A DNA stretch of 64,000 nucleotides from Eledone cirrhosa (taxonomy: Eukaryota), in the NCBI GenBank assembly GCA_964016885.1, contig OZ024741.1, positions 28,954,001 to 29,018,000 of the forward strand. Direction: 5' to 3'. Below, in pieces: positions 15,206-63,000 of this stretch (position 1 is the stretch's first letter; every line of letters starts with the position of its first letter). The translations under genes were made by a program, and so were the position numbers. The notes below the pieces were generated by a model that saw only the letters and a program-made list of their open reading frames with translations, ran no database searches and was not told where the DNA came from.

Positions 15206-18200
15206 ATTTTTTCCAATTCAATGATGTTCCGGAACAATATAAAAGAGATAATTGGCAATTTAGGTTCTGGAACAAAAAAGATAATTGGCAATAAGGGCAG
15301 GGGCCCCAGGTTATCACAGCCTGGGCCCGCTCGTCATCGTGCCATTGTAATAGAGCCAAACAAGGCATTTAGTCTTGGCTGCTGGAACGTACGGACGCTA
15401 CTTGACAGGGATTCCTTGGAGCGTCCTGAACGAAGGACCGCTCTTGTTGCAAAGGAGCTTCGACGTTACGATCTTGACATCGTGGCTTTATCTGAGACGA
15501 GGTTAGCTGGAGATGGGCATCTTACAGAATTTTGTGAAGAATATACATTCTTCTGAAAAGGAAGAGATGAAGGAACCAGAAGAGAGGCTGGGGTAGGATT
15601 TACTGTTAAGACTGTACTTGTGAATAAATTAGAAGAATTCCCAGTAGGGATTAGTGAGCGTCTTATGTCCATGAGAATTCCGCTGGACAAGGGAAGATAT
15701 GGGACCCTGGTGAGTGTGTATGCTCCAACTATGAATTCTGTCGATGAAGAAAAAGTGTCCTTTTACCATGCCTTGAAAGGTGTTTTAAGAAATATCCCTC
15801 AGGCAGACAAAGTCATCGTGCTTGGTGACTTTAATGCTAGAGTGGGTAGGGATTTTAACACATGGAATGTAATCGGAAGGCATGGGGTGGGAAAGTGTAA
15901 CAACAATGGTATGCTCCTGCTGCAGATGTGTGAGGAGCTGGATCTGTGTGTTACCAACACCATGTTCCAACAAAAGAACAAATTCCAGACCACATGGATG
16001 CATCCTGCATCTAAGGAATGGCATCTTTTGGACTACGTCCTAGTCAGGATGCGTGACAGACAGGATGTGCAGTGTGTTCGTGCTCTTCGTGGAGCTGAGT
16101 GCTGGACTGACCACCGCCTGGTACGCGCAAAAGTGAAACTAATCACTAAACGTAAAATCCGGGCTCCTGGTGTTGCCCTGCCCAAAAGATTGAATGCTAC
16201 TCGTCTTAAGTATAAAAATGTGAAGAGGACATTGGAAGAAGCGATGCAGGCTGCAGATCTTGGTGAGGATTGGCCGACCCTTAAAAAGTCGGTTTATGAT
16301 GTAGGCAGGCGTGTTCTGGGATTGGTGCAGAGAAAACATCAGGACTGGTTTAATGAGAATGATGTACTTATCGAAGACTTGTTGGCTGATAAGAGGCGTG
16401 CTCTGTCACGCTACTTGACGGCAAAACCACAGGAGAGGAATACGTTGCATGAGGAACTCAAGGATGTAAAATCACGTGTTAGGCAGAGTCTTTCTCAGAT
16501 GAAGGATCAGTGGGGGAGTGAGAAGGCTGGTGAGATACAAACTGCGTCAGATTCCAATAACACAAAGCTGTTGTACAGTCTCTTGCGTGAGGTTTATGGA
16601 CCGTCTTCTTCTCTGGTGACACCGCTTCGCAGCAAGGATGGCAAAGAACTTCTTCGTGACTCACAAGGAATTCTACGAAGGTGGCAAGAGCACTTTCATG
16701 AACTTTTGAATCAGCCGTCTGTGGTCAGTGAAGATTTCCTCAATCTCATTCCAGAAAGTCCTGTGAAAGTAGCTCTCGCAGAACCTCCGACGCTTGTTGA
16801 GGTTGCAGTGGCTATTTCGAAGCTGAACAGTGGATGATCTCCAGGTATGGATGGCATACATGCTGAGCTCCTACAATATGGCGGTGAGAGACTCCTGCAA
16901 CATCTTCACTCTTTGTTTGGCAGGATATGGGCTAATGAATCAGTACCTGAGGACTGGAGAGATGCAGTAATGGTGGTCTTGTACAAGGGAAAGGGTAACA
17001 GGAATGATTATGGGAACTACAGAGGTATATCATTGCTTTCTGTCGTAGGGAAAGTTTTATATAGGGTGCTTCTCGACCGTCTGCTGACACACATTGCAGA
17101 TTGTGTTCTACCTGAAAGTCAATCTGGTTTTCGTGCTGGACGCGGCACTACTGATATGATTTTCTCAGCTAGACAGCTCCATGAGAAGTGTATGGAACAA
17201 GGCTTGGATCTGTATCAGGTTTTTGTCGATCTGACAAAAGCTTTCGATACTGTTAACAGAGATGCATTATGGAAGGTTCTCCAGAAACTTGGTTGCCCTG
17301 ATAAGTTCCTTGCTTTAGTTAGGTCTTTCCATGACGACATGATGGCTTGGGTTAATGTCGGAGCCTATCTCAGTAAAAAATGGAGTGAAACAGGGGGATA
17401 TTCCAGCACCGACCCTGTTTGCCATATACTTTGCAATGGTTTTCTGTATTGCATTCAGGAATTGCGAGCATGGTGTTTACATCCGATATCGAACCTCAGG
17501 CAGAATATTTAACATCAGGCGCTTTGCTGCAAAGACAAAAGTATTTACATCAATCATAAGAGACCTCTTGCATGCAGATGATTGCGATCTTGTAGCGCAC
17601 ACAGAGAGTGATATGCAGCACATTTTGAATGCATTTTCTAACGCTTGCACTGCCCTAGGATTGACTGTCAGTCTCAAGAAAACCGTCGTCATGTACCAAC
17701 CTGCCCCTGGTAAGCAGTACACTGAACCAAACATCTATGTGTATGGTAAACGAATTGGAGTGGTTGATCAGTTTGTCTACCTGGGAAGCACTGTGAAATC
17801 TCACTCAGGATTAGGAAAGCAAGTGATGCTTTCGGAAAGCTAGAAAGGCGACTCTGGGGTCGGCGAGACATATGTAGGAGGTCAAAGGTAAAGGTGTACA
17901 GGGCATGTGTGCTCTCTTGTCTTCTTTATGCCTGCGAGACCTGGGTCACATATCCACACCACCTTAAGCAATTGGAGCGTTTCCATCAGATGTGTCTCAG
18001 ACGGATCCACGGCGTTCACTGGAGGGACCACATCAGTGATGTCGAGATTTTGGAAAGCTCTATGTGTGACAGTATAGAAGCTCTTGTGCTTAAGCAACGA
18101 CTTCGTTGGGGTGGTCACCTTGCCAGGATGAAGGATTCTAGAATACCAAAACAACTCTTTTATGGAGAGTTGGTTAAAGGAAAACGACCGCCACATAAAC

Positions 18201-18735
18201 CGAAAAAGAGGTATAAGGATTCCTTGAAAGCCTCTCTGAAAGACGCTAACATCTCTGCTGATACATGGGAAAATATTGCTGCTGATCGTAATAAATGGAG
18301 AAAGACTGGATATGAGGGAAAAGTTGCCTTTGAGGCATCTCGAATCGCATACGAGAAAGTAAAGCGGGATGTGAGGAAGGGCATTGCTGTTGCACTTCCA
18401 GACGGCGAGGGTCCTCCTATGGTGCTGACATGCAGCGTCTGTGCGAGACTCTGCCTAAGCAAAGCTGGACTCGAAAGTCATCTTCGCAGTCATAAAGTAA
18501 GACCAGTGGTTGACTACCAGGCTGGTGTTGGAGATGCTACTCATCATGCTTGCCAAACATGTGGTAGAGAATGTAAATCAGCAGGATGGCTCAAGCGACA
18601 TGCAAAATACACGAACTCCAACTCCAGCCGACTATTCCCAGTGAATGTTTTGGTTGCCGACTCTGTGCAAGACATTTTAGATCATTGGCTGGGCTAAAAA
18701 GCCACATTCGATCGCAGCGCTGTTAGTTGCTATCG
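15206..18735 (+). mobile_element. RTE-clade LINE, near full length, inactivated (APE-RT-C2H2 fingers)
   Basis: APE motifs GCWNVRTL, ALSETR, GDFNA, DYV, TDH. RT motifs YRGISLLS, FVDLTKAFD, GVKQG, LLHADD. C-terminal CSVC..H and CQTC..H fingers. Stops at ~15554 and ~16835; frameshifts/deletions near 17360, 17795 and 18600. Flanked by (TATG)n/(TG)n. Confidence 0.95.
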
Positions 18736-26400: not shown

Positions 26401-26733
26401 ACACCACTCCGCAATACCAGTCTATAGGTTCCACCATCTCATTATTTTTATTATACATTTTTAATTATCAATTTGTCCTCTTCATTACTTCGTAGTATTC
26501 ATTCACACCTTATATATGTTTTCACCTCCTCTCATTGTAATGTTTTCTGTTTTGTCTCAGTATATATCGGTTACTTCCCCTTTGTTAAACCTCTCCTACG
26601 TCTCACTGCTCCCTCCTCCGCCCAGTTTAATATTTATTTCTGTCTATTTTCAATCTTCATTGCATTATCTAAATTCCATTAAATGTCTTTGTCCTAAATT
26701 TACCGCCGCCCCATGCATTGCATTGCATTGCAA

Positions 26734-26800
<67 letters not shown>
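26734..26800. repeat. (TATC)n microsatellite (LINE target)
   Basis: ~16 units abutting the LINE 5' junction. Confidence 0.97.
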
Positions 26801-26801
<1 letters not shown>

Positions 26802-29800
26802 GGTGGGGGATTGGAATGGTATCCTGGATGCACGTTGGGACTATGCAGGGGCATGTCCCGATAGAGAGGGGTGCAACAGCCTCAAGGGGTTACTCGGCCG
26901 ATTTGACCTGGCCGATAGATTTCGACTAGATTTTCCGACGGTGCCAACCTGGTCTTGGTCAAATCGCAGCGGATCATCTAGGTCGTACCTAGATAGATTT
27001 TTAGTTAGAAATAAGGACAGGGACTTTTTAAGTTGTCCAGAAATGCTCATGGTTGGCTATTCAGACCACAAGTTGGTGACCTGCATGGTCAACCTTGATA
27101 GAACGCATAGACAGGGCCCCGGTTACTGGAAGCTCAACTTGTCCTTGCCGGCAAGTAGAGCCTACAGGGATCGGATTAGTACGTTAGTTAAGGAACGGTT
27201 GACTGGAGCGATCGTCAACAGCAGGTGGTGGGTATCTCTAAAGAGAGAGATTAGAGTAGTCTCGATAGAATTTAGTAAGGTTCTAGCTGCGGATAGGAAT
27301 AGGAAGGAAAGGGAGCTAATAGATAGAGTAGAAGAGGCTATTAGAAGCGGCGACGTGGCCAGAGTGCTAGCGTCGAGAACGGCTTTGAGCCAGTTTTTCG
27401 ACGCGAAGCACGAAGGTTGCGTTGTCCGAAGTAAAATACGTGCTCTAGGGAACGAGGGGACCAAAGCTGTTAGCTGGGCCCGCGTGACAGAGGCCAACAG
27501 TGGAAGTAAATCCACCATCCGGTCTTTGCGAGACCTGGATGGACGGGCGATTCTTGAGCCTAAGCAGATGTGTGAGGCCTTTCAAAGGCATTTTGCCCGA
27601 CTGTTCGGGAGGGGCAGGGAGCCGGTTGGGAACGTGGACTTCGGTCCATACCTCGACGGCCTGCCGCGCCTCTCGGACAGGGAGGCGAAGTCCTGCGAGG
27701 AGCCGATTTCGGCCGCTGAGATAGAGGACGTGCTGAGCCAATGCGGCAAACGCAAATCCCCCGGGTCTCGATGGTCTTCCTTACGAATTATATCTAGCTA
27801 TGCCGGACTTGTTCCCCGATCTCCTCGAGGCGGTCTACTGCAACTGGCAACAGAACGGGAGAATTCCCTGTACTGTGACCAAGGGCGTAGTCACGCTAGT
27901 GAGGAAGGACGAGAACAAGGGGGACGAAATAAGTAACTTCAGGCCCATAACTCTGCTAAATACAGAGTTACAGATTTTGGCCAAGGTGCTAGCAAAGAGG
28001 TTGGCGCTTGTCGTGGGCAACCTGGTGGGAGATGCGCAGACATGTGCTATCCCGTCCAGGTCCATCCACGATAACCTCCACCTCATGCGATACGTCATAG
28101 AGAGGGTTGGGAACAAACCCGGCTTTGGTGGGGCCCTGATCAACTTGGATCAATCTAAGGCATTCGATAGGGTCGACCATGGTTACCTGGATGCGGTGCT
28201 AGCGGCGGCAGGCTTCGGACCCGTTTTCAGGGGCTGGATCAATGCCATGCACAGCAGCCACATCTGCTCTAGGGTCAAGGTGAACGGCTACCTCTCGGAG
28301 CCGTTCAAAATCGCGCGGTCCATCCGACAAGGGTGCCCTCTCTCCTCCCTTCTGTATGTGTTGACTCTCGAGCCACTACTGCGGAAGTTGGAGTTGTTGC
28401 AGGGCATCCCTTTGGAACCGGGATTGCGGAAAGCGGTGTCGGCCTACGCCGATGACGTGACAGTAATGGTGTCGACGGCCTCCGAAATCGAGGCGGTCGG
28501 CACCTTACTGGAGGAGTACGAAAGGTTCACAGGGGCTAAGCTGAACCGGGACAAGTCGATCGGTTTGCAACTCGGCACGTGGAGGGGCAGACCGATGCCC
28601 TCCGATGGCGTCGTCGGACGCTGGACGGAGGGCCCGGTGAAGTTGCTCGGGGTCTGGTTCGGACCGGACCTCCAGGTGGAGAAAAACTGGGTGGAGGTTA
28701 CGAACAGGGTGTTTGCACTGACCCAGAAGTGGGCCAGTTGCAAACTATCCCTGAAAGGTCGGGCGGAGGTGGCGAACACCTACATAGCGTCCGTCATCTA
28801 CTACCGCCTGACCGTAGTGCCCTGCCCAAGGGAAACCCTCACCAAGATGGAGCGCGCACTCTTCCAATTCCTTTGGAAGAGGCGGGCTCCTATGGTGAGG
28901 AGATCCATCTGCTGTCAACACCCTTCGAAAGGAGGGCTGGGGATGCCGTGGCTAATGATGCGTAAACACGCATTAAGGCTACGGCACCTCTACGTATTCC
29001 TCACCGGTCAACCGGTGTGGGCCTCGTTTGTGAGACGAACCTTTCCCAGACTCGTCTCACTCACCGAGCTGCAATCCTGGGTCAAGCAAAGACCGAGAAA
29101 ACTGGGCGCCTGGCACACTGAGTGTGCCCAGGCGCTCACCGCCCTCTGGCAGGCGGATCCGGTTGTCAGTGGAGACTCCACCGCAACATTCTATAGAGGG
29201 CTGGTACGCAGCAGGTGCGACGACGCCCTCGGAGAAGCCCTAGACATGGAGGAGTACGAACTGGCCAGCCTGTTCGGTAGGACATTCAGCCCGGGACCTA
29301 TGGACAACTTCCAGAAGTCCCTGGCCTGGCAGTGCTACCGAGGGGCTTTACCCGTTCGAGAAAGGCTCTACAGACACGGGCGCCCGGGTAGGGATCCCGC
29401 CCAAAAGATCTGTCCCAGATGCGTGTGCGACGAGGAAACCGTTGCACACGAATTGGTACACTGCTCGGGCGTAGCCGATCTGTGGGGCTATGTCGAACAA
29501 CTGCTGTCAAGGGAGGGACCGATCCGGTTGACCACCGAGTCTATTGTAATGATCAAGCCGCCTCCCCCCTTCAAAGATGAAGCAGAGGCGGTGTTTCTGT
29601 GCGTAATAGCCACGGCGAAAGAGGTTGTATGGTGGACGCGTCTGAAAGGACTGAGGTCAGGCACCTTTCTCTCTGGCCAACAACTGGTCCGTTTCTTCCG
29701 ATATCATTTCGGAAGAAGGATCAGGATGGAGAGAGAGGTGCTCCACCCCAGTCGTTTTTATGAAAGGTGGGTGAAAGTGGCGAGAATGGCCCGTGTGAAT

Positions 29801-30090
29801 GGGCATTCTCTTTACATAAGCCTGTAGGTGGAAAGGAGGAAGGAACGAGGGAGCACCCCCTCTCTGTGCTCCTGAGGAAAAGGGTTGCACACTTTTTTCG
29901 GGGGTGTGTGCGACCCCCCAAGGCGCCTTCTCTCTATCGAGGATTTTGTTATAAATTTTATTTTTTGTTATATTTTATTTTATTTTTATATTTTGTTATT
30001 GCCTCCTCCTTATTGAGGACGCCTTTTTGTGTAAACTCCCCCCTTTGTACTTGTCCCACTTTTGATGCCCAGGTGGCAAATAAAAGAAAC
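26801..30090 (+). mobile_element. Tx1/L1-type LINE, 5'-truncated within APE; ORF2 intact except one frameshift
   Basis: APE remnants GDWN, SYLDRF, SDHK, GYWKLN. RT motifs FRPITLLN, DQSKAFDRVDH, RQGCPLS, AYADDV. CCHC finger CPRC-x8-H-x4-C. Single +1 frameshift at the C5 run 27758-27762 (KSPGLDGLP). AATAAA at 30079; (TATC) resumes at ~30094. Confidence 0.93.
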
Positions 30091-39245: not shown

Positions 39246-40049
39246 ATATGTCTGAAAAGAGGTCAAGAAATACAGCTTGAAAGCCGGTAGATCGATGTAT
39301 TTTCTGGACTGGAATATGTTCACAATGCAAGCGAATGAAATTACAGAGGGCAGAAGTCATGAACTATGTAGGATGTAGGTTCTAAAAAAAAATATTACAT
39401 TTAGATTATGCTGTCTTTTATTATACAAAGCATATAAATAAATTTACTGTAGAATAACATTACAAATATGTTTTAAATATATACAAATGCTTAAATGATA
39501 TTATAAATTGCTCGTGATTCTTTCAGAAAGATATATTCTTTTAATGTTGCAACATTAAAGGAAATGTAAAGGAAGGTGTGAACAACCGAGCCAACACCAG
39601 AGCAAAAGACAGCAGCGTCGCGAGGAGTACTGGGCAACCTCTCGAATGATTTTTGAGGCAAGCCAGCACACTCGCAGCGTTGCCTCGCCATCACTCGAGG
39701 CAACGCTGCGGTTCTAAAACATCTATACAGGTAAATGTTTTACACATTTTAGAAAATATGCACACGTACGTTACCAGACCACACCATTTAAAAATACTTG
39801 GGAGTACACGAAGAGGAAAATATAGCAATGGCGGTAAAACAGGAAATAACGTGGTTATCTCCCTTTCCTACGTTACAACTATGCACAGAATACGTAAATG
39901 GATAGATAAATACCACAATTCTCTCTCTTTCTCTGTGTGTATATATATATATATATAACGAAGGAAATGTGGTAAGGAACCAGGTGGACCATAACGCACC
40001 AAAGTACTCAATACTTGAGGTAGTAGAGTGGGTAATAGGAACCAGTAAG

Positions 40050-40143
40050 ACCCCGACAGCTGAGCTCAAGCCGTTTCGACGGCTAATTCTGGACTAAATG
40101 AAAATTTATCCTGGTATTTAAATAGCCGATCTTCTCAAGGGGT
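40050..40143 (-). ncRNA. Hammerhead ribozyme, U3-A8 core variant (left arm)
   Basis: Mirror copy of 44233-44326. Confidence 0.75.
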
Positions 40144-59985: not shown

Positions 59986-61029
59986 AATAATGATTTCAAT
60001 AATAATGATTAAAAGTGATGCCTTCTGTATTTTTATGTTCAGACAGCGAAGGAATAAAAGTGCTCATGGCCCTTTTTAGGGCTTCCAAGAAAGGTATCCT
60101 TAAACTGTGGACATGGCTTGAATGTTTACAACAGACTGGACACTGCTAAAGACATCTGCAAGGAAGTTGGTGGGGTTGAACTGGGAACGAATGAAGTCCA
60201 CAACGCTGTCCACAAGTGGAGGACATTACGAAATGTCTTATAACATTCTTATAATATTACCGCGCGAAATCATGTTGGGCTAGAAGGAAGCTGAGGATTA
60301 CGACGCTATAGTTCTTTGATTTACTTTCTTCATTCTTTCACCACTGTTTATCTTTGTTTTTGCACCATCGTTCTCATTCTCGCTTTTCTTCTCATCTCTC
60401 TCTATACTTCTCTCATTTCTCATCATATGCTTTAGACTCCATTTCTTTCATTCGCTTCCTCTCTCCCTTCTTCTCAGCTCGTTATATTTTAACCCGACGT
60501 TTTGCTATGCACCTGGCCGCTTTACACATACTTCCGTGTTTAGGTTTACTATAATTTTATAAAAAAGGAGTGTAACCTAGGCACAACACTAGACATTTTG
60601 TAGGTAACGATATAGTCAAGTTTCATTGCTCCATCCAATAGATACGAACAGTAAGTGCCTTAATCATAAATATAAACATTATTCTCATCCTAAACTGAAC
60701 CAAGAATGTAATCGAACCTAAGTAACCAATAATCATTAAATGATCTGATCAATAGATAAAATCGTAGTCAGCCTTTTGTTGCCCCAAATATTGCTGACAA
60801 CTACAGTACATCTTAGACAGTATATCTCATTTTTCCTAGGATTAACAGATATTAATTATGTATTCATGAAATTTCTACACAGAAATATAGCAAATAAAAA
60901 CAGAACAAAAGAAGAAATTAATAAGAAATGATTTCAAAGAATATAAGATATTGCTTAGTATAGAGAATGATGGAATGGTAGTCACGTTCCAAGTACACGC
61001 CTATATTCATACATCTCTCTCTCTGTATA

Positions 61030-61577
61030 TATATATATGAATGTATATATAATGTATTTTTCAATACACTGTATGCTTGATTAAAAGCATTTTGAAGACT
61101 ATACGGTATTGTTTTAAAATAGTGACAATGTCACTTATTAAATTTTCAGCAAACAGGGGGAGATAAACTGACAGAGCTCTGTTTCGTACTTTTTGGTACT
61201 TATCAAAGTTCACTACCCCTCCTGTTTGCTGAAAATTTAAATTAGTGACATTGTCACTATTTTAAAACAATAGCGTATGGCCTTTAACATGCTTTTAATC
61301 AAGCATACAGTGTATTGCAAAATACACTATATATACATTCATATATATATCGCTATTTCACAGCACCAATTCTAATTTTCAATTTCTGCTGGACCGGCGA
61401 CCGCTCTCTATAATCAGTTCCTGATTATTACTGGAATTCTATAAGAATCCAACACATATAATTTTCAGCAAACAGAAGGGGTAGTGAACTTTGATAAGTA
61501 CCAACAAGTATGAAACAGAGCTCTGTCAGTTTATCTCCCCTGTTTGCTGAAAATTTAAAAAAATGACATTGTCACTT
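61030..61577. mobile_element. ~318-bp hammerhead-containing unit (sister of the 311-bp family), ~1.1 copies plus an inverted partial copy
   Basis: CCTGTTTGCTGAAAATTT recurs at 61221 and 61539. 61345-61423 aligns with 45551-45629. Confidence 0.85.
61487..61531 (+). ncRNA. Hammerhead ribozyme, U3-A8 variant (mirror on minus at 61166-61210)
   Basis: AACT-TTGATAA-GTAC-CAACAA-GTAT-GAAAC-AGAGCTCT-GTC-AGTT. Extended stem TTTTCAGCAAACAG/CTGTTTGCTGAAAA. Confidence 0.78.
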
Positions 61578-61589
61578 TGTTTATCTATA

Positions 61590-63000
61590 TTACTCTCACT
61601 CTGGAGCTTCCTGGCAACATATCCATTCAGGGTTTTTTACTGATAAGCATGAACATTTTCATCCATGCATTCACTGCGGTACTGTGATTTTGATTATCCA
61701 CAGGGGATATCTTTCCACATGAGTTCCTTCCCAACTCTCACGGCCGTATCTGTCTCTTGCAGATAGACTTGTTCGAGAGACGGGCTCCTACGCTTCGAGG
61801 TTTGTAGATGTTGTCGGAGGGATATGATGCGACATTCAAATGTCTGGACTGATGTTAAGGCTCTGCCTCCCTGCTTACGTTTCAAGTAGAGGCGGTCTAT
61901 ATCACTGTTGATGTGGAAGGAAGTTTCCGGTGTTGTTTAGTATTTTTCGAGTTCCAACATCAACTGCTCGGATTTCGTCTATCGTCCAATTGAGTATTCC
62001 AAACGTTGGTATTAAGGCAGGCACAGCAAACACATTGTGAATCACTGTTTTGTTGTGCGCAGGGAGTTCCGATGATCATATTTTTCTTAATCGGGTGTAA
62101 TATTCCCTGGTTACGCGTTCCTTATTACAGATACCATTATAGAATATGTTCTCATCTATCCCCAGGTATCTGTAGCAGTCCTCATCAGATGTCGGTGAAA
62201 CAGTTAGGCCATTGATAACAATGTTGCTAGATTGGGTTGTTGTTTTTCCCCGCTTTACAGTCATATATGAACATTCATCTTGACCAAACTCCATTCCTAT
62301 ATCCTTTGAGAATGTTGAAACCAGGTCAAGATGTTTCTTCATCCCATCTATGTTCTTGGCATAGAGTTTCAGATCATCCACAAAGAAATTATGGGTTAGT
62401 TTCGTATTTCTGTCCTCCTGTGAGCCAATGATGTATCCTTCACATTTCTTGAGAACAAAGGGCAAGGGGTTTAATGACAGGATAAATAGTATCACAGAGA
62501 GATTGTCTCCTTGAAATATACCCCTGAGATATTCGTATGATTAGGAGTTGTTCAGCACACCCCCAAACCCCTTTCTTTCCAGCTGCTTGTTCATCTGTGA
62601 TGATGTTATTATTTTCACAGTGATCTTGGAGGAATAGGTTCAGGCAGGCTGTATACATCTTATACATCAGGTTCTGGCATGCAATGGGTCGGTACATATT
62701 TATATTATTTTTACGTTCAACAAATGTTGCTTGTTGGCGTAATTGTTTCGCTGTAATATGATTTAGTTCTGGATGTATTTCGTCCCAGTGTAGCTTCATA
62801 TAGACAACGGAAGGATTTTTTTTGACATTTTATAGCAATTAAATAAATCATCATTAAGTTCGCAACTCTAAGAGAAATGCGATTTATAATTTCGGTTTCT
62901 TCTGTAGCTACAACTGAATAACTTTTGTTTACCTTTCTCATTGTTTTGCTACGGTACTTCCTTAATGTTGTTGATGTTGTTGTGTTCACTCATGCTGTTT
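61590..63000 (-). mobile_element. Internally deleted R4/Dong-like LINE (N-terminal and RT fragments)
   Basis: YRPIACQNLMYK, EQAAGKKGVWGCAEQLLI, GIFQGD.LS..LFILSLNPL, THNFFVDDLKLY, YRYLGI, DRLYLKRKQGGR. Confidence 0.88.

Follow-up and report, generated by a model that had tools for sequence, protein, structure and literature searches.

Is a 318-bp repeat carrying a hammerhead ribozyme, located near the end of the window, a relative of the 311-bp repeat found around 45 kb, is the RNA fold of the two under selection, and which machinery inserts such units in the genome? The window is the whole stretch of 64,000 nucleotides of the Eledone cirrhosa contig OZ024741.1 that was analysed. The two units, hereafter called A (311 bp) and B (318 bp), had been presented in a preliminary description as colinear homologues, and they are: identity is 77% over 155 nt (E=6e-27), 203 of 321 columns match in a global alignment, and all the strings quoted in that description were found in place. 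They are two subfamilies of one non-coding, hammerhead-bearing family. Their features are listed in Table 1.

Both loci are made of two arms in opposite orientation, which overlap by 2 nt in A and by 17 nt in B, where the overlap falls inside the stem closing the hammerhead. The period of B is 318, as the tract 61221-61258 is repeated at 61539-61576. The B locus is not an array: it consists of a plus arm just longer than one unit and of an incomplete inverted arm. The 3' end of the B direct arm is atypical: it lacks a TA run, coincides with neither of the fixed ends described below, and directly adjoins a decayed LINE reverse transcriptase (RT) fragment (61578-62829, minus strand; Pfam RVT_1, E=4e-9). 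Elsewhere in the window, at 15557-18697 and 26698-29827 of the plus strand, lie two long ORFs of LINE type that contain endonuclease and RT motifs; they are presumably RTE-like and Tx1-like. In the A multimer the longest ORF starting with ATG is 30 aa long, and no ORF exceeds 30 aa; the coding scan of B covered only ORFs of at least 120 aa.

Table 1. Coordinates of the repeat units, their parts and the neighbouring Penelope-like element in the window
Feature	Position	Strand	Remarks
Two-armed Penelope-like element, Hydra clade	39959..44341	.	marks RWR, DKT, CxCx5C
Hammerhead of the Hydra-clade element	44234-44325		type I, U3-A8; stem II insert of ~40 nt
A inverted arm	44929..45361	-	1.4 units; tailed end (site 2), next to (TA)n
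A direct arm	45360..46178	+	311-bp unit, 2.6 copies; site 1 end, next to (TA)n
A hammerhead cores	45386, 45697, 46008	+	CTGACGA (subfamily A: CTGANGA), C3-G8
A post-hammerhead hairpin	45454-45468	+	place equivalent to that of B; not letter-homologous
A hairpin P6	45496-45512		ATGTTT/AAACAT
A hairpin P7	45515-45534	+	AGAATATT-TTCG-AATATTCT
B inverted arm	61029..61237	-	0.66 unit, hammerhead included; site 1 end, next to a TA run
Hammerhead of B inverted arm	61163..61213	-	U3-A8; stem II GTAC/GTAC
B direct arm	61221..61577	+	1.1 units of 318 bp
B post-hammerhead hairpin	61243..61259	+	TAGTGACA-T-TGTCACTA
B hairpins P6 and P7 together	61289..61328	+	showcased in the preliminary description; 1 double change, 2 stepwise via G-U
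B hairpin P6	61289-61306		ATGCTT/AAGCAT
B hairpin P7	61309-61328	+	AGTGTATT-GCAA-AATACACT; loop GAAA in inverted arm
Site 1 and site 2	61342..61381	+	the two fixed places where genomic copies end (3'); site 1 in the internal ATATATAT, about 61350; site 2 61376-61381
Conserved block	61350..61445	+	CGCTATTTCAGAGCA ... GGACCGGC ... TTCTATAAG; putative RT-binding region
Closing stem P1	61461..61554	+	carries hammerhead; 8/19 compensatory events including P1b
B hammerhead	61484..61534	+	type I, U3-A8; core TTGATAA 61491-61497; stem II 61498-61511; GAAA; palindromic stem III ACAGAGCTCTGT 61515-61526
Predicted B cleavage site	61527	+	after GTC

Metazoan non-LTR retrozymes are tandem units of 170-400 nt, low in GC, which carry a type I hammerhead (Cervera and de la Pena 2020, PMC7229834). 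A and B units similarly lack ORFs, as ascertained on the A multimer, and LTRs. They are also short, low-GC and tandem, and their length falls in the range of about 150-450 bp expected for the class. Each unit features a type I hammerhead, recognizable by core, stems I-III and 9 compensatory events. Copies are moreover dispersed, as expected for mobile units. The pattern of the conserved block discussed below has 17,659 exact matches across the assembly, which measures 3.0 Gb and is rich in microsatellites, and the reversed control has 0. A units 100% identical to each other are found on many contigs; the best B copies reach up to 95%. The class of elements is already known from other animals, and what is gained here is mechanistic detail, not a new kind of element. 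In open-access texts, supplements excluded, no paper was found on the A/B family or on two-armed retrozyme insertions; the supplements of PMC7229834 and of a 2026 preprint cited below may include the family.

One contig was sampled by the block pattern. This gave 123 unit-length stretches, 120 of which were within the length range and 92 remained when near-duplicates were removed. Five subfamilies are represented among the 92 copies, A, B, C/C', D and E, the last four of which are arranged as a series; A sits on a long branch. A further subfamily, featuring another stem II and a palindromic stem III, was noted outside of this set (L201:3359-4078).

Neither the A nor the B hammerhead was detected by a Rfam scan of the window at the gathering threshold, which gave 0 matches, and the assignment relies therefore on core motifs, stems and covariation. 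The change of the core pair from C3-G8 in A to U3-A8 in B, and the palindromic stem III of B, which is made of four pairs, are both as first reported. The A hammerhead has a U-U at the base of stem II, a one-pair stem III and the palindromic loop CGCG; its cut is predicted after GTA (45727). One-pair stem III and palindromic tetraloop are features of the axolotl HHR_Amex1, the U-U base of helix II is a feature of HHR_Amex2 (PMC7229834). When constrained, the active fold of B is the minimum-energy fold in one circular register, not in another. The single-hammerhead fold of A lies 8.6 kcal/mol above the circle minimum, and this cost suggests that the A ribozyme may be dimer-dependent, as HHR_Amex1 is (PMC7229834).

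The B unit had been said to carry a different ribozyme. This view is not supported. At the 3:8 pair, 49 of the 92 copies have C-G and 35 have U-A, and by parsimony the switch took place twice on one tree, in the B and E branches; subfamily C' combines C3-G8 with the stem II of B. Hence the B ribozyme is a descendant of the same lineage, not a replacement. U3-A8, which arose twice, is a described variant, found in hammerheads of Cercyon, a Penelope-like element (PLE) of Schistosoma (Cervera and de la Pena 2014, PMC4209133). The core covariation is the same, but U3-A8 is hosted in Cercyon by minimal pLTR hammerheads, in the A/B family by a ribozyme with a full stem III, and in the latter both switches can be traced on one family tree. 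The family is also a natural set of mutants of a single hammerhead, in which C3-G8 switched to U3-A8 twice independently. Another hammerhead repeat, unrelated to the A/B family and about 458 bp long, was noticed on TA runs at L016:1900-3000, L134:1-530 and L141:2400-3100. It features CTGATGA, a stem II with a U-U base, a palindromic ACTAGT stem III and the octamer ATGCAAAT.

Compensatory changes between the two units had been read as the mark of selection on an RNA fold. In 33 selected copies both sides changed in 27 of 84 named pairs, versus 8-12 in slid controls. On the internal branches of the 92-copy tree, double changes keeping the pair account for 19 of the 61 events monitored at 78 pairs; the background, calculated across 44,227 column pairs, is 397 of 21,947 events (1.8%). 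The pair was kept in 38 of the 61 internal-branch events; on terminal branches this was so in 150 of 408 (Fisher p=2e-4; all covariation p-values are nominal, because the helices were partly chosen from the same sequences, and derive from tree-based counts). Better pair-keeping on internal branches is expected if master elements are selected and inserted copies decay.

Covariation across the 92 copies is real, but its location is mostly not the one pointed out at the beginning. The hammerhead accounts for 9 of the 19 compensatory events, the closing stem (P1 and P1b) for 8, the block for 1, and the two showcased hairpins, P6 and P7, also for 1. Taken by themselves, P6 and P7 fall short of significance (1 of 8 events, p=0.14), and two more changes occurred there stepwise through G-U; P6 is missing from the minimum-energy fold of A. 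The swap from a UUCG to a GNRA tetraloop in P7 is weak as evidence. The loop is GCAA in 37, GCCA in 25, TTCG in 9, ACCA in 6 and GAAA in 1 of the 92 copies, GCCA is found in the older subfamilies, UUCG is closed by a U-A pair, and no GNRA/UUCG rule is followed.

The same covariation could be a DNA-level effect, as template switching or conversion may perfect inverted repeats without any selection on RNA. Some inversion junctions do use the arms of the closing stem (17 nt at the B locus of the window, 16 nt at locus L135), and the lack of significance of P6/P7 alone also fits. This origin is nevertheless highly improbable, as the 3:8 core pair switched twice outside any DNA palindrome, stepwise changes go through G-U, and G-U is kept over A-C pairs. 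G-U pairs are 375 and A-C pairs 159 in total; they are 81 versus 6 in stem I, 60 versus 23 in P1, and 35 versus 6 in P7. This excess argues against a DNA-palindrome cause and denotes the plus strand as the selected one. Selection on an RNA fold of the plus strand, as originally proposed, is supported by both the 19 pair-keeping double changes and the G-U excess.

The strand is not picked by folding, z-scores being -4.8 and -5.2 for the minus strands, -4.0 and -7.6 for the plus strands. When A and B are folded as circles, closing stem, stem I, post-ribozyme hairpin and P7 agree, but the block differs. The hairpin following the hammerhead, described as replaced, is present in B; the A and B hairpins lie 5 columns apart in the alignment and share no letter-by-letter homology. 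A and B-E are unalignable there, and this hairpin was excluded from the covariation count.

The block is conserved in primary sequence, as had been noticed. No substitution occurred on internal branches in CGCTATTTCAGAGCA (15 columns) and TTCTATAAG (10 columns), versus 3.3 and 1.1 substitutions per column, respectively, on terminal branches. Letters, and not pairing alone, are therefore conserved. The idea that the block may be an RT-recognition element is reinforced by its invariant letters and by its position, which is at the two fixed insertion ends and immediately downstream of them. By analogy with a PLE in which RNA located 3' of the RT start sites is required (PMC11167929), the block is likely an RT-binding site. 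As to the promoter role also suggested for the block, neither a Pol III nor a snRNA-type promoter was recognized: A box, B box and octamer were sought in the unit and none was found; several T4 runs are present.

Genomic copies end at two fixed places, both followed by (TA)n. Site 1 lies 140-141 nt, site 2 166-172 nt beyond the predicted cleavage site, and the tail in between measures 26-31 nt. All the 17 two-armed A insertions with both ends visible have one end of each type (unit position 197 and 221-228). Among 44 two-armed non-A insertions, whose ends were tallied by hand, the two end types are combined in 34, while 9 end at site 1 on both sides and 1 at site 2 on both sides; the expected fraction of one-of-each ends is 0.48 (p=8e-5). 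Arms meet head to head and in most cases overlap by 0-6 nt. Their 5' ends are scattered; in A, truncation points do not cluster at the cleavage site.

Insertions of PLEs feature partial tandems, an adjacent inverted copy truncated at the 5' end, and a tail of 30-40 bp at one side only (Craig et al. 2021, PMC8557442). Naiad and Hydra PLEs target (TA)n (PMC8557442), and two internal RT start sites located downstream of the hammerhead, with a need for RNA 3' of them, have been described (Frangieh et al. 2024, PMC11167929). Inverted copy, one-sided tail, bias for (TA)n and two sites downstream of the hammerhead are all found in A/B units, and inverted arm, one-sided tail and microsatellite target occur together in the 17 A insertions and in the 34 non-A insertions with one end of each type. 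A/B units differ from PLEs because they have no RT/endonuclease ORF, both arms are multimeric, and the tail is 26-31 nt long; moreover, site 1 is homologous to the target, unlike the RT start site of the anole PLE. One end of each type per insertion and the (TA)n target match what is described in PMC8557442 and PMC11167929. The A/B family is probably a non-LTR retrozyme inserted by the RT-endonuclease of a PLE. Two observations count against this: 10 of 44 non-A insertions do not have one end of each type, and in the window the right end of B is itself atypical.

A link of retrozymes to PLEs has been put forward by Li, Clavereau and Pollet (bioRxiv 10.64898/2026.07.22.740005), who see retrozymes as non-autonomous PLE derivatives, both in origin and mobilisation. 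In the preprint text the argument is built on pLTR homology in Xenopus, and arrays are attributed to local expansion; for A/B it is built on insertion scars, and no homologous pLTR was found in the PLE sequences compared. The text of PMC7229834 does not contain the words inverted, microsatellite, octopus or cephalopod, and leaves priming undecided. Compared with the retrozymes described there, ends, target and two-armed structure are fixed in A/B; circles have been demonstrated for the former. The paired scar of two-site priming, and the haplotype shared by the two arms, go beyond these papers. The scar makes the priming of animal retrozymes, and the enzyme involved, testable, and the family supplies exact coordinates for this: two start sites, the target and a candidate binding block whose letters do not vary. 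One of its subfamilies is, in addition, active at present.

The following course of events would account for such insertions. The plus strand would be transcribed as a multimer, which the hammerhead would cut to unit length, and circles would be closed by a host ligase, as known for other retrozymes. A Penelope protein would bind the invariant block and cut both strands of a (TA)n tract. Pairing with the internal AUAUAUAU would prime one DNA end at site 1; the second end would be primed on the same RNA at site 2, which lies 26-31 nt further downstream. Each cDNA would proceed past the ribozyme site, round a circle or along a multimer left uncut, and end at a variable position, and the two would be joined head to head by 0-6 nt of microhomology or via the closing stem. 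Selection would act on the master RNA, for pairing in hammerhead and closing stem and for the exact letters of the block, and inserted copies would decay neutrally.

The template must be a circle or an uncut multimer, since arms longer than about 0.55 unit cross the cleavage site; of the two, the circle appears somewhat favoured. Circles of coral, mussel and axolotl retrozymes have been demonstrated (PMC7229834). Both arms of an insertion can be multimeric, up to 9.8 and 6.0 units in A, at about 100% identity, which is at odds with a scheme in which the PLE copies an uncut multimeric or read-through RNA and arrays grow later by unequal crossing-over or slippage. Equally against this scheme, the long closing stem covaries strongly, as would be expected if it positions the ends for ligation. 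Mobilisation of the same family without any circle keeps a modest probability: local expansion through unequal crossover is what Li et al. propose (bioRxiv 2026.07.22.740005), and A precursors may stay uncut, given the 8.6 kcal/mol cost of their single-hammerhead fold. A single haplotype was found in both arms at all 9 loci having full units on both, with 7 haplotypes among loci, and this is compatible with either template.

Arms reach 9.8 units in A; in the non-A set the median of 170 arms is 1.04 units and the maximum, without the A-type arrays of L183 and L187, is 2.1, the two samples having been drawn differently. The contrast could result from ribozyme strength or from age-related collapse. 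We tentatively suggest a reading in which the PLE enzyme uses two fixed sites on one circular RNA to prime the two ends of a break, and rolls round this RNA in both arms. Ribozyme strength would then set the length of the array, and the block would act as a portable RT-binding site, recognized in trans by a PLE sharing no sequence with the units. If this is true, the dimer-dependent A should give arms up to about 10 units, the monomer-competent B-E arms of about 1-2 units.

Viroids replicate from RNA to RNA without a DNA stage, and those of the Avsunviroidae type carry ribozymes in both polarities. The A/B units had been called a family of viroid-like mobile RNAs. A mobile RNA family they are, but of the known class of non-LTR retrozymes, and replication from RNA to RNA, with genomic copies as by-products, is quite unlikely. 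The unit is small, structured and hammerhead-bearing, as a viroid might be; there are at least 7 A haplotypes, which differ mostly at tolerant hammerhead positions, and three runs of unrecorded kind, labelled as other organisms, host each one self-closing contig of 340 nt, about 98-99% like A. Tandem DNA yields such contigs too. The hammerhead motif is found on one strand only, the fold is branched and about 60% paired, and thousands of DNA copies, which bear RT-type scars, suffice as templates. A pattern scan of metagenomes matched 120 loci, and 0 of these are family members by profile at E<0.01.

Which PLE could be the partner of A/B units? The Hydra-clade PLE of the window belongs to an active family with 113 scored matches at 98-100% and intact ORFs of 717 aa. 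It targets (TA)n and follows the one-sided tail rule, as A/B units do. Its ends are located about 17 and about 95 nt past the hammerhead and the tail measures about 80 nt, versus 140, about 166 and 26-31 nt in A/B units. The window copy and a full tandem copy, compared with the units by blastn, revealed no similarity beyond TA runs. This PLE, or a close relative, may possibly be the mobiliser, and is regarded as a tentative candidate. Tiny two-armed insertions of 60-140 nt, with a single tailed end, are also produced by the family.

No pLTR was found by the family profile over loci L001-L212 and the window. A block pattern with longer spacers gave 10 matches, all ordinary variants, and 30 of 167 variants with GAGCA followed by a purine were examined and found to be all members of the A/B family. 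No autonomous element sharing the block was identified in the one full-length PLE family and in the PLE fragments of the fetched loci. PLE fragments found at no more than 100 nt from a retrozyme are, L018 and L346 aside, nearly all arranged tail to tail over a shared TA run, an arrangement that denotes independent insertions. At L346:1500-1723 a PLE-like stretch extends beyond the normal end, and runs straight into about 35 nt that correspond to site 1 and tail of a retrozyme; this single case is ambiguous, being either a chimera or a nested insertion. Another Hydra-like PLE fragment is located at L158:363-1100, and carries a canonical-looking hammerhead about 45 nt before an end flanked by TA. 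AT-rich element ends with minimal-type hammerheads and a long stem II, found at L212:8200-8330, L004, L153 and L157, probably represent a further PLE family.
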